Shown here: piece by piece, positions 7,731 through 53,661 of the stretch
Layout: every line of letters starts with the position of its first letter
How positions within the stretch are numbered: the first letter of the stretch is position 1
Assembly: GCA_012517255.1 (NCBI GenBank)
Contig: JAAYVH010000159.1
Span: forward strand, 2,793 to 66,792
DNA from: Chthonomonadales bacterium
Lineage (GTDB): Bacteria > Armatimonadota > Chthonomonadetes > Chthonomonadales > CAJBBX01
DNA length: 64,000 bases
Direction: 5' to 3'
The notes under the pieces: generated by a model
What the model was told of the DNA's origin: nothing
The model's database searches: none
What the model saw: the letters and a program-made list of their open reading frames with translations, nothing else
Made by a program: the position numbers and the translations under genes

Positions 7731-9479
7731 ATGCGCGAGCGCCACAGTCCGAGGGGATTGCCCCGGTGTCAGGCCTTTCGGCCCCCTCTGGCGTATGCCC
7801 TCGTGAGTGCCCTTCTGGTGGCGATCGCCGTCGGAGCTTCCGCGCAGGAGATCTCCCGCGAGGATATGGACGCCTGCATGGCCTGTCACGCTGCCCCGAT
7901 GGGTGATGCCGCCGCGGTGAATCGGGACGCCCTGAAGATATCGCCCCACAAGGACCTGGCGTGCCAGGATTGCCACACTTCGATGACGGCGGCGCCGCAC
8001 ACGAAAGAGATGCTGGCCCAGAGGGCATCGTGCGGAACCTGCCATCCGGAGCCGCTCTCGGCGTACATGGACAGTGTGCACTCGCGGCCCGACAAAGTCG
8101 AGGGCGACCATCCGACGTGCCGATCGTGCCATGGACGCGGCGGCGATCCTCATGCCGTGGTCAAGCAAGCGTGGACGCGCCGGCAGACGACGGGCCTGTG
8201 CGCACGATGCCACAGCGAGAAGGCGCGCATGGCGCGCTACGGCGTGGATCCGGATGCTTCGCGCTCGTATAGCGACAGCTTCCATGGCAAGGCGCTCCTG
8301 CGGTTCAACCTCGTGAAGGCCGCAGGATGCGTAGACTGCCATAAGCAGCACGACGTCAAGTCGCCCGGCGACCCGACGGCGCCCACCAATCGTGCGAACG
8401 TTGCCGCGGTGTGCGGTCAGGACGGTTGCCACCCGGGAGCGAAGATGAACTTCGCCATGTCGGGGGCCAATCACCTGAAACTGAAACTCAAGGCCGTGCC
8501 TCTGCTCCGCCTCGAGGAGCTCTTTTTCCAGTGGCTCACCGCCGGCACTATGCTGTTCCTTATCGGCGGCATCGCGCTGGACCTGCGCACGCGGGTGTTC
8601 ACCAGGAAGCAGGTGCCCGCAGCGAGCCGCGTCGTGGCCGCGATCATCGCCGCCAGCTTCCTCGCGCTGGTCGCCTCGCTGGCCATGGCGGTGGCAGGCT
8701 TCGGACGACCGCGGTGGGTCGGGATCGCCGCCGTAATCCTCATGGCGCTTGCCGGCGTGGTCTGGGCAGCGGTTGGCCGTCGGGCGAAGCCATCATCGGG
8801 TCCTGAGAAGGAGTATCCGCGTCTGGACCTCGTGCACCGGCTGCAGCACATCCTGTTGTTTGTCAGCTTCATCGCGCTTGCCGTAACGGGGCTTCCCCTC
8901 CGATTCGCGCACCATCCCTGGCTCGTGGCGATGTATCAGGCCATGGGAGGCATTGGCGTCGCTCGCGGCATCCACCGCGTTGCGGCCGTCATGATGATCG
9001 CGGCCTGGATCTGGCACACCATCGACCTGCTCATACGCTGGAAGCGGGCGGGGTTCCGGTTCTCATCATGGAGCATGTTCCCGACGATGAAGGACGTCCG
9101 CGACTTTGTGCAGCTCAGCCGCTACTATCTGGGACTGTCGTCGGAGCCGCCGAAGTTCGACCGGTTCGAGTTTCGCCAGAAGTTCGACTACTTCGCGGTC
9201 TACTGGGGCATGCCCATTATGGTGTTCTCGGGGCTTGTGCTGTGGTTCCCGATCTTCTTCGGCAACATGCTCCCTGAGACAGGAGTGTCGGCGGCCTACA
9301 TTGCCCACAGCGATGAGGCCATCCTGGCGGTGCTGGCCATTGCCGTCTGGCATTTCTATAACGTCCACTTCAACCCGGGCGATTTCCCGATGAGCTTCGC
9401 ATGGCTCACCGGAAAGAAGACGCGAAGCCAGATGGAGCACGAGCACCCGCTGGAGTTGGAGCGGATCGAGCGGGGCTAG
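7731..9479 (+). CDS. membrane multihaem cytochrome c fused to an FdnI/HydC-like di-haem cytochrome b domain (CbcL-like quinol-linked electron-transfer protein)
   Basis: AGGAGG at 7717-7722 and a signal/anchor sequence. Six CXXCH motifs (Cys at aa 49, 78, 101, 130, 157, 200) plus one CX4CH (aa 228-234) and about 8 spare His residues. About 7 hydrophobic helices follow, the last four carrying His in HRLQHILLF, GIHRVAAV..WHT, YIAHSDEA and WHFYNVH. Confidence 0.75.
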   Translation: MRERHSPRGLPRCQAFRPPLAYALVSALLVAIAVGASAQEISREDMDACMACHAAPMGDAAAVNRDALKISPHKDLACQDCHTSMTAAPHTKEMLAQRASCGTCHPEPLSAYMDSVHSRPDKVEGDHPTCRSCHGRGGDPHAVVKQAWTRRQTTGLCARCHSEKARMARYGVDPDASRSYSDSFHGKALLRFNLVKAAGCVDCHKQHDVKSPGDPTAPTNRANVAAVCGQDGCHPGAKMNFAMSGANHLKLKLKAVPLLRLEELFFQWLTAGTMLFLIGGIALDLRTRVFTRKQVPAASRVVAAIIAASFLALVASLAMAVAGFGRPRWVGIAAVILMALAGVVWAAVGRRAKPSSGPEKEYPRLDLVHRLQHILLFVSFIALAVTGLPLRFAHHPWLVAMYQAMGGIGVARGIHRVAAVMMIAAWIWHTIDLLIRWKRAGFRFSSWSMFPTMKDVRDFVQLSRYYLGLSSEPPKFDRFEFRQKFDYFAVYWGMPIMVFSGLVLWFPIFFGNMLPETGVSAAYIAHSDEAILAVLAIAVWHFYNVHFNPGDFPMSFAWLTGKKTRSQMEHEHPLELERIERG

Positions 9480-36033: not shown

Positions 36034-36113
36034 GATGGTTGCTCGCGGGCATTCTGACACACATGCTCGCCCGTGAGCAACCGCGCGCATAGTGAGACGA
36101 TTGGCGGCTCGTT

Positions 36114-36373
36114 GGGGCGAATCAAGCGCCGAACGGAGCCGCGATGAAGACGGACGCGGTACGACGCGGTTGGTTCGCCCAGTTCAAGCCGTGACGGCCG
36201 CCGCCAATCGGAACGAGGGCGTACCAGCCGGTTCTGGGCTCGGGCCGTGTGTTCGCGACATCGGCGCCCCGGCTGACACGCCCCTACGCACCGTCGGCAG
36301 CCCGTAGGGGCGAATCAACCGCCGAACGGAGCCGCGATGAAGACGGACGCGATACGACGCGGTTGGTTCGCCC
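36114..36373. repeat. structured REP-like repeat, about 1.4 copies (same family as 51894-52093 and 52333-52531)
   Basis: Module a is a long hairpin, GGGCGAATCAAGCGC (36115-36129) pairing with GCGGTTGGTTCGCCC (36166-36180). Module b contains GGGCGTACCAGCCGGTT. Module c ends CGCCCCTACG (36279-36288), which pairs with CGTAGGGGCG (36303-36312) at the start of a second module a (36307-36373). Confidence 0.8.
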
Positions 36374-50828: not shown

Positions 50829-51578
50829 CTACCGATCCGCCTCCATCTCCTCGTCGGGGATGTCGAAGTTCGCATGAACGGCCTGGATGTCGTCGTGCTC
50901 TTCGAGGAGGTCCATCAGCTTCAGCACCTGCTGGGCTTCCTTCCCCTCGACGCGAACCGTCGTGGTCGGTATGCGCGTAACATCCGACGAGACCACCTTC
51001 AGCCCCGCCTCGCGCAGCGCGTCGGCAACGCCTGCCAGATCTCCCGGCGATGTGTAGACCTCAAAGCCGTCGTCGGTCGTCTGCACATCGTCGGCGCCCG
51101 CTTCGAGCGCGGCGGTTAGCACGGCGTCTTCCTCAACGCCGTCCCGCTCGATGGTGATCAGACCCACCGGCGGACCGAACAGATAGCTCACCGCGCCGCT
51201 CTCGGCGAGTCGCCCATTGTTCTTGTTCAGGATGCTGCGCACGTCGGCCACCGTGCGGTTGCGGTTGTCGGTGGCGCAGAAGATCATCATGGCCACGCCG
51301 CCGGGCGCGTAGGCCTCATACATCAGCTCTTCGATGGCGGCGCCTTCGACCTCGCCGGTGCCGCGCTGGATGGCGTTCTTGATCTTGTCCTGCGGCATGG
51401 AGGCTTCGCGCGCCTTCTGGATTGCCAATCGGAGCCGAATGTTGGCGTCGGGATTGCCGCCGCCCTGCTTGGCGGCGATGATGATCTCGCGCGCGAGTTT
51501 GGTGAAGCGAGCGCCGCGTTCGGCGTCTTGCTTCCCCTTCCTCAATCGGATGTTATGCCATTTCGAGTGCCCGGACAC
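50829..51578 (-). CDS. yebC: YebC/PmpR-family transcriptional regulator
   Basis: The N-terminus MSGHSKWHNIRLRKGKQDAERG is diagnostic. Length 249 aa. Confidence 0.9.
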   Translation of the reverse strand: MSGHSKWHNIRLRKGKQDAERGARFTKLAREIIIAAKQGGGNPDANIRLRLAIQKAREASMPQDKIKNAIQRGTGEVEGAAIEELMYEAYAPGGVAMMIFCATDNRNRTVADVRSILNKNNGRLAESGAVSYLFGPPVGLITIERDGVEEDAVLTAALEAGADDVQTTDDGFEVYTSPGDLAGVADALREAGLKVVSSDVTRIPTTTVRVEGKEAQQVLKLMDLLEEHDDIQAVHANFDIPDEEMEADR

Positions 51579-51780
51579 CGCAGCTACCTCCCCTGCCGCA
51601 AACTAACCACAACCGACGGCCATTGTATCACATCTGAAGCGGTCGGGGGAGGCTCCGCGCTGCGACGGCGACGCTGAGCATCCGTCGCATCTCGCGACGC
51701 CAATGGGCCGATCGGCGCAGACAGCTCGGGATCGCACCGTCGGCGGTCCGGCCGATACGCCGTTACAGGGTGCGTGCGCA

Positions 51781-51832
51781 GCCCGCCGGTGATTGAGCCG
51801 GCGCGAAGCGCCGTGTCGAAATCAAGGCGGGC
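51781..51832. repeat. 52-bp hairpin element X, copy 1
   Basis: GCCCGCC-N38-GGCGGGC with an inner GGCGC-GAA-GCGCC stem-loop. It is the exact reverse complement of 52545-52596, checked base by base (52/52). Confidence 0.9.
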
Positions 51833-51893
51833 GATGTTCATCCCTATGGCGGTCGTTCGGCCCGCAGTGTCTACGACCGCGCGCCGCACAATG

Positions 51894-52093
51894 CCCGTAG
51901 GGACGAATCAATCGCCGAGCGGAACCCGCCGAGAAGAGGGACGCGGCAGCGCGCGGTTGGTTCGCCCATGTAACGCGTGAGGCGTAGGCCAGCCGGTGAA
52001 CGCCGCCATTTGTCGGAACAAGGGCGTACCAGCCGGTTGCGGCCTCAGATCACGTGATCGCCCCGTCGGTCGTCCGGCTGATACGCCCCTACG
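51894..52093. repeat. structured REP-like repeat, full copy B1
   Basis: A 200-bp unit with modules a, b and c. By eye it is about 88% identical to B2 and clearly related to 36114-36288. Confidence 0.85.
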
Positions 52094-52175
52094 ACATCCG
52101 CGCGAGCCGCGACGCGGTGTGGGGCGCGCTGCGACGCGCCCCAACCATTGCCGCCGCTTCTCGCGACGCCCACAC

Positions 52176-52291
52176 GTCATTGCGAGCGAAGCGAAGCAAT
52201 CCCGAAGGCATTTGCTCGTCCCGTATGGCGACGCCTATCTGCCCATCGGCGCGTCGACCGTTCGGGATCGCGTCGCTGCGCTCGCGATGAC
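52176..52291. repeat. inverted-repeat (foldback) element nested between B1 and B2
   Basis: The 31-nt arms GTCATTGCGAGCGAAGCGAAGCAATCCCGAA (52176-52206) and TTCGGGATCGCGTCGCTGCGCTCGCGATGAC (52261-52291) are complementary at 27/31 positions, around a 54-nt loop. Confidence 0.75.
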
Positions 52292-52332
52292 GTGACGGGT
52301 CGTCGTTCGCCATGGAGAGCGCACTCCGGCAG

Positions 52333-52531
52333 CCCGTAGGGGCGAATCAACCGCCGACCGGGACCGCCGAGAAGAGGGACGCGGCAGCGCGCGGTTGGTT
52401 CGCCCATGTAACGTGTGATGCGTAGGCCAGCCGGTGAACGCCGCCATTTGTCGAAACAAGGGCGTACCAGCCGGTTGTGGCCTCGCATTATGTGATTGCA
52501 CCATCAGCCGTCCGGCTGATACGCCGCTACG
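52333..52531. repeat. structured REP-like repeat, full copy B2
   Basis: Direct repeat of B1, 439 bp downstream, with the same a/b/c module order. Confidence 0.85.
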
Positions 52532-52544
52532 TGGCGCGTGCGTT

Positions 52545-52596
52545 GCCCGCCTTGATTTCGACACGGCGCTTCGCGCCGGCTCAATCACCGGCGGGC
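52545..52596. repeat. 52-bp hairpin element X, copy 2 (inverted relative to copy 1)
   Basis: Exact reverse complement of 51781-51832. It contains the stop codon (52581-52583) and the last 4 codons of the GyrI-like gene. Confidence 0.9.
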
Positions 52597-53081
52597 TCGA
52601 TCTTCATCCAGACGTGCTCGACGAACGGCGGCTTTGGCTCGTTCTCATAGCTCATGGCGAAGCATGCGTCTCCCTCGACGTAGCCGTGCTCGGTTGCCCA
52701 TCGCTCGAGCATCGTGACGGCATCACCCACGCCCATGGCGGCCTCTTCCTCGGTGTCGCCTGTCGAGGTGACCGTGACATACTGTCCTTCCGAGAACCGC
52801 GTTGTGGCCACGTCGGCGGGAACGGCGGCGATGTCAGAGACCTCGACGCCCACAAAGCAGGCCCGGACGTCTGCTCCTGCGTCCGGATGGTCACGCCTCG
52901 GGCGATAGAGAAAGCCAAGGATCGTGTCGCCCACGCGGTTCGTGATGGTATCTCTGCACCGTAGGAACCCGGTGTAGGCAGCCGACCACGCGGGACCCTC
53001 GTCGTCTCCCTCGAACGTTGCGTAACAGCCTGCCACATGGTACGGCCCGGCATGGACGACGGTCGGCTCGCTGAGTCTCAT
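52581..53081 (-). CDS. GyrI-like small-molecule-binding domain protein
   Basis: About 166 aa from ATG 53081 (MRLSEPTVVHAGPYHVAGCYATFEGDD...). There are two similar beta-alpha-beta-beta halves and a tail ...GDACFAMSYENEPKPPFVEHVWMKIEP, typical of GyrI-like/AraC-effector-binding domains. The ORF-track start at 53183 overlaps the upstream gene. Confidence 0.55.
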   Translation of the reverse strand: MRLSEPTVVHAGPYHVAGCYATFEGDDEGPAWSAAYTGFLRCRDTITNRVGDTILGFLYRPRRDHPDAGADVRACFVGVEVSDIAAVPADVATTRFSEGQYVTVTSTGDTEEEAAMGVGDAVTMLERWATEHGYVEGDACFAMSYENEPKPPFVEHVWMKIEPAGD

Positions 53082-53121
53082 GGCCGTTGCAGCCCTCATT
53101 TCTCTGGTACACGGCCTGACG

Positions 53122-53661
53122 CTAAGGCTTCCGGGTCTCTCCCGATTTGCCCGCCATAGCCTCCTTGAGAGGCTTCCCGTCAATGGTAGGGTTCGACTTA
53201 ACGGTCTCTATCTGCAGCAGGCGCCAGCCCTGCGCAGTCTTCTGCCACGTGTCCCGGGTGACGCCCTGGTCGGCCATCTTCACCGTTTTGCCCTTCTGCG
53301 GCTCGATGACGCCGCTGAAGGCATAGCGGTTGACCACGATCGCATCCTTGCCCTTGATGGCCAGCTTGGCGATCTGCATCTTGACGGACTTCATCTCCTT
53401 GAGCATGGCGAACTGCATCCCGATCTGCATCTTCACTTTGTCAGCCGGAACCGTCTCGTCGCCCGATTTGCCGGTGAAGCCCGGAGCGGTCAGGGCCATG
53501 ACAGCGTTGACGTCCCGCTTCAGGAACGCTTGCTCCATCTTGCGGTACATTGGCTCCAGCGCCTTGCGGACGGCCCGCTCATTGCCCTGCGCCCACGACG
53601 CCGATGCCATGGCCGCGATCAACGCCACAACGAACACACGGTACGCGCCTCTCACTCTCAT
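53122..53661 (-). CDS. secreted NTF2-like (SnoaL/DUF4440-like) protein
   Basis: Signal peptide (VFVVALIAAMASASWAQG), then YRKMEQAFLKRDVNAVMALTAPGF and a C-terminal ...DTWQKTAQGWRLL pattern typical of DUF4440/SnoaL-like domains. Confidence 0.5.
   Translation of the reverse strand: MRVRGAYRVFVVALIAAMASASWAQGNERAVRKALEPMYRKMEQAFLKRDVNAVMALTAPGFTGKSGDETVPADKVKMQIGMQFAMLKEMKSVKMQIAKLAIKGKDAIVVNRYAFSGVIEPQKGKTVKMADQGVTRDTWQKTAQGWRLLQIETVKSNPTIDGKPLKEAMAGKSGETRKP

Follow-up and report, generated by a model that had tools for sequence, protein, structure and literature searches.

Among described repeat systems, the closest to the one reported here are the repetitive extragenic palindromic (REP) sequences and bacterial interspersed mosaic elements (BIMEs) of Enterobacteria and Pseudomonas, which the REP-associated tyrosine transposase (RAYT, or TnpA-REP) mobilises or processes (PMC2817692, PMC3333891). 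Here we analyse X, a 52-nt imperfect palindrome that occurs in two mutually inverted copies between a YebC-family gene and a GyrI-like gene of a Chthonomonadales bacterium (GenBank assembly GCA_012517255.1, contig JAAYVH010000159.1, forward-strand positions 2,793 to 66,792); this 64-kb stretch as a whole is called the window. X resembles REPs and BIMEs in being a short imperfect palindrome with many extragenic copies, in its mosaics of linker modules, in forming hairpins on both strands, in showing no target-site duplication and in occasionally overlapping a gene end, and the repeat modules in its neighbourhood, designated R, B and H, bear the GTAG head typical of RAYT-associated REPs (GTAGGGGC heads, as in the GTAG-REPs of PMC3733652). 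It differs in length and in lacking a tag, since REPs measure 20-40 bp and end in GTAG or CGTC (PMC3733652), and in its host phylum, Armatimonadota. Furthermore, successive REPs in BIMEs alternate and are joined by junction-specific linkers, whereas X has the same two neighbours in either orientation.

REPINs (REP doublets forming hairpins; Bertels & Rainey, PMC3116915, PMC3337134) are comparable as symmetric hairpins of two inverted half-units with a dominant 'master sequence' and a core that is conserved relative to its surroundings; they are, however, about 100 bp long with a variable spacer and unique flanks, while X has a 3-nt loop and flanks that are themselves repeated. GI REPINs exist in two arrangements, of which the rare AA-TT form has been ascribed to juxtaposition of two doublets (PMC3337134), unlike the reversal of X between fixed neighbours. 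Di Nocera et al. (2013) described REPs systematically joined to a second, unrelated palindrome, namely GTAG-15 of A. variabilis, GTAG-23 of T. roseum and CGTC-1 of H. neapolitanus, with partner palindromes that in some species never occur alone and with about 10% of REPs at the ends of open reading frames (PMC3733652). There the REP lies inside the partner palindrome, whereas X lies beside a REP tail, and no orientation dimorphism is reported in that work.

Miniature inverted-repeat transposable elements (MITEs), as well as the Correia elements and the intergenic mosaic elements (NIMEs) with dRS3 of Neisseria, are likewise small non-coding repeats with inverted ends that occur in both orientations within mosaic intergenic clusters. 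MITEs are 70-300 bp long, carry terminal inverted repeats of 15-30 bp and duplicate their target site, and we rejected X as a member of that class on its 7-bp arms, the lack of any duplication at its ends and its length of 52 bp. A further parallel comes from hairpins that flip in place: in plastid genomes, micro-inversions of non-coding hairpin loops make orthologous sites polymorphic, and replication of terminal hairpins produces the flip/flop forms of parvovirus inverted terminal repeats and poxvirus telomeres. These systems share with X an asymmetric core between short perfect inverted repeats, two reverse-complement forms and unchanged flanks; X differs from them in being internal, multi-copy and invariant in sequence, with an orientation that is fixed at each site across strains (at the two sites that can be compared).

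A dispersed repeat reversed between collinear neighbours

The two window copies of X and the sequences beside them are as follows.

51781..51832, + strand: X copy 1, an imperfect palindrome of 52 nt; configuration A (R-tail, X(+), T)
52545..52596, - strand: X copy 2, reverse-complementary to copy 1 at every position; configuration B (flank order unchanged, X reversed)
51730..51780, + strand: R module plus tail (..GTCCGGCCGATACGCCGTTACAGGGTGCGTGCGCA), from the 3' end of a GTAG-type REP/B element, adjoining X copy 1 on the left
52494..52544, + strand: R module plus tail at the 3' end of B copy 2, adjoining X copy 2 on the left
51833..51892, + strand: T module (GATGTTCATCCCTATGGCGGTCGTTCGGCCCGCAG...), adjoining X copy 1 on the right and opening with the 11-nt docking motif GATSTTCRTCC
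52599..52609, + strand: look-alike of the docking motif (GATCTTCATCC), separated by 2 nt from X copy 2 and part of the native GyrI-like coding sequence

A previous reading of the window, made from its letters alone (the sequence-only reading), had described two perfectly reverse-complementary 52-bp copies in which only the segment bounded by the arms is reversed against collinear flanks. Our analysis agrees on both points, and the inverted repeat search finds arms at 51780-51832 and 52545-52597, spaced by 712 nt, that are 100% complementary over 53 nt. In copy 1, arms of 7 bp each (GCCCGCC at 51781-51787 and GGCGGGC at 51826-51832) enclose a core of 38 nt. The left flanks of the two copies are identical at 27 of 34 positions, matching the homology of about 79% in the same orientation reported before, and they are collinear because both are the 3' end of one repeat module (GTCCGGCYGATACGCC..GYGCGTGCG), which has three copies in the window, at 51746, 52072 and 52510. 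The right flanks have GATSTTCRTCC in common, confirming the shared GAT(G/C)TTCATCC noted earlier, albeit with a 2-nt offset at copy 2.

With up to three mismatches allowed, the 52-mer occurs at exactly these two places in the window (0.00 expected, from 100 shuffles). Self-alignment allows X to be read as a pair of inverted 24-nt half-units enclosing a loop of 3 nt, without a spacer; the minimum free energy of its hairpin is -34.5 kcal/mol for the + strand and -32.1 kcal/mol for the - strand (z about -3.9 to -4.0), a fold equalled by 0 of 200 shuffles, and neither a GTAG nor a CGTC tag is present at the ends of its 52 nt.

Further copies, which the sequence-only reading had suggested searching for, proved to be numerous and present in both orientations. 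A 20-mer from X identified 44 loci in JGI metagenomes, about 40 of them in a single metagenome (Ga0067045) and many at contig ends, and this metagenome holds the same species as the window, to which contig L038 is 99.1% identical over 12.2 kb and contig L050 98.8% over 4.9 kb. In the window and these loci together (299 kb), blastn-short returned 50 full copies of X, all at least 96% identical and with no diverged copies among them; 32 of the 50 are distinct copies with both flanks readable. The statistics on copy number and orientation rest on contigs that were fetched through X itself, many of which end at X, and some contig-end copies may be one genomic copy counted twice. Against species-representative genomes, a set that does not include the source species, the same 20-mer gave three chance matches (Rothia, Kineosporia), none extending through X, and no X, B, T, H or 56-bp module was found in two contigs of related species (L055 and L056; 33 kb), whose NadB proteins are 85% and 74% identical to that of the window. 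The best named relatives of the window NadB belong to Chthonomonadales/Armatimonadota, at 63-66% identity. X is a dispersed, apparently lineage-restricted repeat of this Chthonomonadales bacterium, and the two window copies, which both lie in the YebC/GyrI-like intergenic region, one of them overlapping a stop codon, are ordinary members of the family.

The sequence of X is nearly constant across this family. Averaged over alignment columns, the major allele has a frequency of 0.993-0.996 in X versus 0.86-0.89 in the adjoining R and T columns, with the drop falling at the arms of X, and the invariance holds also for the 32 positions of X outside the search seed. Judged by these frequencies, X is either younger than its surroundings or under more constraint. 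The sequence-only reading had taken the perfect identity of the two window copies as pointing to a recent or recurrent event; a recent event particular to these two is not supported, since X is nearly invariant in about 50 copies and the identity is thus a property of the family.

Orientation, in contrast to sequence, is not constant. With every copy written as X(+), configuration A reads [R-tail, S or other]..A / X / GATGTTCGTCC.. (the T module), and configuration B reads ..GGACGAACATC / X / T..[R-tail(-), S(-) or other]. Among the 49 classified copies, 24 are in configuration A and 25 in configuration B; the split is 16:16 when only copies with at least 15 nt of both flanks are counted and window orthologues are removed. 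Junctions of the types R-X-R(-) and T(-)-X-T are absent from all 49. The reversal of X between collinear neighbours is therefore a general property of the family and not local to this locus. The left partner of X varies (usually the R-tail of a GTAG-type REP, otherwise S and others), and R and S are each found in both configurations, as are the R-tail variants ACAGGG and ACGTGG; the T variants CGTCCCG and CGTCCGG each accompany both orientations, while CATCCCT was seen in configuration A only. Similarity of the T-side flanks is unrelated to orientation (p = 0.29). A rare variant of X, C44, is common to neighbouring copies with different flanks (L021). At the two window sites the orientation is fixed: in consensus assemblies, their X junctions are identical in five datasets, namely the window metagenome-assembled genome (MAG), ERZ928041/ERR1876141, SRR21707648, DRR358088 (copy 1 only) and Ga0067045, read from ENA assembly L001, JGI contigs L038 and L050, and Logan contigs L002, L004, L006 and L007.

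Neighbouring copies of X that lie 300-1300 bp apart are mutually inverted in 6 of 7 pairs, with collinear flanks (window 51781/52545; L053 11250/11663; L021 6/397/1705; L042 371/806; L054 1001/1376). This excess, which suggests a local pairing of copies, is not significant (p about 0.06). X also occurs in tandem arrays with 49-57-nt linkers, at periods of 109 and 101 nt (L027 32-192; L054 1376-1528; L048 85-196), and tandem copies about 100 bp apart are in direct orientation (L027, L054). In L048 the 3' 30 nt of X are triplicated internally.

Other identities for X were discarded. An Rfam scan returned nothing relevant, whether for the whole window at the gathering threshold or for the region at E up to 1. 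No intrinsic (Rho-independent) terminator was called at X, where the GC-rich hairpin is present but is followed by GATGTTC or TGCGTGC and not by a U/T tract. We set aside an attC, dif, CRISPR (clustered regularly interspaced short palindromic repeats) or operator site on sequence pattern alone. The pair of copies is also not the terminal inverted repeats of an 816-bp composite transposon, for the same R and T modules lie outside it as inside and there is no target-site duplication.

Docking motif and proposed installation of X

On its T side, X adjoins a sequence that agrees with GATSTTCRTCC at no fewer than 9 of its 11 positions in 34 of 39 copies; on its other side it adjoins an A, the last base of a GTAG-type REP tail or of another module, in 45 of 48. 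In the window the motif has only two matches, both beside X, where 0.17 would be expected. X is abutted by A...G in configuration A but by C...T in configuration B, and since the bases differ between its two sides, no target-site duplication is present.

One of the two window sites lies at the end of a gene, and the genes on either side of the spacer are as follows.

52581..53081, - strand: GyrI-like domain gene, 166 amino acids (NLH99735.1, Chthonomonadales MAG)
50829..51578, - strand: YebC/TACO1-family gene; X copy 1 sits 203 bp upstream of its start codon

The GyrI-like gene (...KIEPAGD*) takes its last four codons, for PAGD, and its stop codon (52581-52583) from X copy 2, and nothing more. 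The reverse complement of the adjoining motif encodes W-M-K-I, and the resulting WMKIE aligns with the YMKIE/YIKIE of homologues that are 55-67% identical and stop 0-4 variable residues further on, at total lengths of 164-166 amino acids. Because the motif abutting X is here native coding sequence of the gene, X would have come to it, alone or with an R/B partner, by choice of target. The overlap of X with the stop codon is, on this comparison with homologues, probably incidental, a short variable tail having presumably been replaced by PAGD and a stop.

We favour, with a probability of roughly one half, the reading that X is the palindromic core module of REP/BIME-like dispersed intergenic mosaics, a non-autonomous hairpin installed either way round at its docking site. 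A selfish X of this kind would be installed, without target-site duplication, at a preferred ..A^GATSTTCRTCC by an enzyme encoded elsewhere, for which the obvious candidate would be an HUH/RAYT-like single-strand transposase, given that the neighbouring modules carry GTAG heads (PMC3733652, PMC3333891). Either strand could be installed, giving flip and flop, since both strands of X share the 7-nt arms and form near-equivalent hairpins, and at the GyrI-like gene X would have landed where the last stretch of native coding sequence resembles the motif. Such installation would account for the invariance of X, either young or copied from a master, against older flanks. It would also explain why the two orientations are balanced 1:1, why no target site is duplicated, why X has left partners of several kinds and why the motif beside it at the GyrI-like gene is native; the T-side result (p = 0.29) and the occurrence of rare X variants amid different flanks fit it too. 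That other modules of the mosaic have recently been mobile, as seen for a 56-bp module that distinguishes contig L001 from the window, is in line with this reading. Of the three candidates named by the sequence-only reading, insertion of a small mobile hairpin in both orientations is the one that best fits the wider data, while inversion of the 712-bp segment does not fit them.

Several observations weigh against installation. No empty docking site was found, all 25 T modules detected carrying X in a sample biased to X-bearing loci, and there was no R-tail/GATGTTC junction without X, R modules themselves occurring both with and without it. We did not observe presence/absence polymorphism of X itself. 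At some sites X and T lie together within another module, as at L054:1477 inside the 56-bp module, which is no simple insertion of X alone. The nearest approach to an unoccupied docking site is a 'Q' module without X (CATTTGCTCGTCCCGTATGGCGACGCC...) at window 52213-52235, whose paralogue at L049 72-95 reads X/GATGTTCGTCCCGTATGGCGACGCC; the two are only weakly similar and differ by replaced upstream sequence and not by a clean insertion. R-side flank similarity is weakly associated with orientation (difference 0.017, p = 0.007), so that some copies have spread in company with their flanks. Finally, a tblastn search of the 299 kb for an IS200-like/RAYT transposase, with approximate IS608 TnpA and E. 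coli RAYT queries, found none, the best E being 0.45, although as a test this is weak.

A more specific form of mobility, which we consider improbable, would make X a self-contained 52-nt cassette that is excised and reinstalled as single-stranded DNA, by either strand, at fixed docking sites (..A^GATSTTCRTCC), with exchange among sites keeping the copies identical while the docking sites decay. If true, X would belong to a type of miniature mobile element, site-specific in its installation, that has not been described for REP/RAYT systems; it would also be the first repeat system to be characterised from Armatimonadota.

Other possible origins of the two orientations

Two further histories would produce the dimorphism without fresh installation. 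X may once have been uniform in orientation, its 38-bp core then being flipped in place repeatedly until a 1:1 equilibrium was reached, through template switching during replication or recA-independent recombination between the 7-bp arms of an extruded hairpin. We regard such in-situ inversion as less likely than installation, but as a serious rival to it. The geometry speaks for inversion: a perfect inverted repeat of 7 bp marks the exact limits of the reversed segment, the 38-bp core and collinear flanks recur at dozens of sites as in plastid micro-inversions, the hairpin is strong on both strands, T was never seen without X, and the 16:16 split is what equilibrium predicts. The presence of both CGTCCCG and CGTCCGG in both orientations moreover implies more than one event of flipping or installation, and template switching at quasi-palindromes is established in bacteria (PMC5941160). 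Copies that had equilibrated should, however, carry point mutations, yet X is about 99.5% invariant between flanks that are 11-14% variable, so that strong selection on all 52 positions in both orientations would be needed. No partly corrected or chimeric X was found, the central GGCGC-GAA-GCGCC loop never reading TTC alone; the polymorphism at orthologous sites that marks the plastid case is absent from both comparable sites in all five datasets; and the native look-alike of the docking motif at the GyrI-like gene is left unexplained. Alternatively, a single ancient flip could have created a 'flop' master, after which flip and flop composites of X with its flanks were amplified separately as two stable sub-families without further flipping. 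The slightly greater likeness of R-side flanks within an orientation class, the restriction of CATCCCT to configuration A, the paralogous composites L021:1-470 and L053:11230-11730, which keep the orientation pattern at both ends, and the shared orientation of tandem copies 101-109 bp apart (L027, L054) are all consistent with this. It is nonetheless a doubtful account, because T-side flanks are not associated with orientation, each class contains the two common T variants as well as both R-tail variants, left partners R and S are each found in both configurations, no substitution in X is diagnostic of either class, and the far better conservation of X than of the flanks with which it supposedly travels goes unexplained.

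The sequence-only reading had also raised a switch of the protein tail by inversion. In its programmed form, a site-specific recombinase would invert either the core or the 712-bp segment and so toggle the C-terminal end of the GyrI-like protein or YebC expression, as in phase variation. The perfect 52/53-bp inverted repeats around the 712-bp segment invite this idea, and an in-silico flip of the core at copy 2 does, as that reading stated, exchange the tail and stop supplied by X for another, ...KIEPALISTRRFAPAQSPAGNARAT*. Several results argue against it, and we consider it very improbable. The Pfam content of called genes within about 10 kb on either side, where a nearby invertase or recombinase had been proposed as a check, includes no recombinase, integrase or invertase; the 712-bp segment consists of repeat modules only and contains no gene, and no sigma-70-like promoter was found in 51300-53300. 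Inversion of this segment by recombination between the copies would leave R-X-R(-) and T(-)-X-T junctions, which are missing in the 49 copies and the five datasets, where both sites show a single orientation. All three members of the 90% cluster of the GyrI-like protein have 166 amino acids, and neither this cluster nor 194 homologues include a flipped-tail or long-tail variant; the tail region of the homologues is naturally variable and short, and the same dimorphism exists at dozens of unrelated sites. To our knowledge, a 38-bp core is also too short for looping by known invertases. A programmed switch is thus not supported, and the GyrI-like gene simply ends in a repeat. The sequence-only reading had itself allowed for the opposite outcome, a common hairpin in random orientation amid unrelated flanks; X is indeed common and lies either way round, but the sequences that flank it are repeat modules related to one another. 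The last alternative, that contigs were mis-joined through the 52-bp repeat, is hardly credible. Short-k Logan assemblies of four runs do break inside X at both copies (L002, L004 and L006 at window 51798-51805; L007 at 52570), yet these contigs retain the diagnostic junctions: GAACATC/GCCCGCCGGTGATT and GAACATC/GCCCGCCTTGATTT need k-mers that span an arm and unique flank, which an assembler cannot invent, and the same junctions appear in independent assemblies made with different software from different samples.

The locus is accordingly an instance of mosaic repeat biology of the junk-DNA type and not a gene switch, which removes for this locus the tempting reading of an invertible switch with an alternative protein tail and documents a REP/BIME-like mosaic in the barely studied phylum Armatimonadota. 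Its unusual features are a near-invariant core palindrome amid drifting neighbours, a 1:1 orientation dimorphism and an 11-nt docking motif. If the dimorphism reflects installation of either strand, it would offer a natural test of strand and target choice by single-strand transposases; if it reflects in-situ inversion, it would be a bacterial counterpart of the plastid hairpin inversions. In practical terms, X repeats fragment short-k metagenome assemblies of this lineage.

The surrounding mosaic

The entire 1-kb spacer between the YebC-family and GyrI-like genes is a mosaic of small repeats, and arrays of the order B - R-tail - X - T - B were seen, including the 109-nt tandem units in L027. 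The remaining modules of the spacer are as follows.

51893..52093, + strand: first copy of the B element (about 200 bp), whose inverted ends bear GTAGGGGCG (CGTAGGGACGAATCAATCG ... CGGCTGATACGCCCCTACG)
52332..52531, + strand: B element copy 2, about 90% identical to copy 1; spacing 438 bp
52056..52113, + strand: R module at the 3' end of B copy 1, not joined to X; the tail (CCTACGACATCCGCGCGAG) continues into other sequence

Because the tail of this last R module runs into non-X sequence, R exists independently of X. The R module at 51730..51780, beside X copy 1, is a fragment from which the remainder of B is missing. B has GTAG-bearing inverted ends (CGTAGGGGCGAATCAACCG ... CGGCTGATACGCCCCTACG) and a long internal hairpin of about 70 nt (GGGCGTACCAGCCGG...CCGGCTGATACGCCC), and looks like a REPIN/MITE-like unit; it is also present at 36103-36288, with a partial copy at 36296-36373, and is frequent in the metagenome loci.

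The 56-bp module (TTCGGACGCGGCGTGGCCGCGGTGGGTGTTTCAGAAAGCGTAGAGAGCTTTCTTAGGAG) is present in ENA contig L001 at 9337-9392 and missing from the window at 52184-52187. It was inserted inside a hairpin (CATTGCGAG^CGAAGCGAAGCAATCC), with GAG at both junctions, and, since it recurs in L031, L033, L042 and L054, it has recently been mobile and targeted another repeat. Over 2 kb, 14 of the 15 differences between the window and L001 cluster at 52047-52138, which covers the loop of the B/R hairpin and the next small hairpin, and L038 has the L001 version; this cluster looks like a gene-conversion replacement from another B copy and not like point mutation. Lastly, at 52174-52293 the window contains an inverted doublet of about 120 bp (ACGTCATTGCGAGCGAAGCGAAGCAATCCC ... 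GGGATCGCGTCGCTGCGCTCGCGATGACGT) of a widespread palindromic repeat type, whose sub-threshold Rfam matches to a plant microRNA hairpin model, on both strands, merely reflect its long hairpin.

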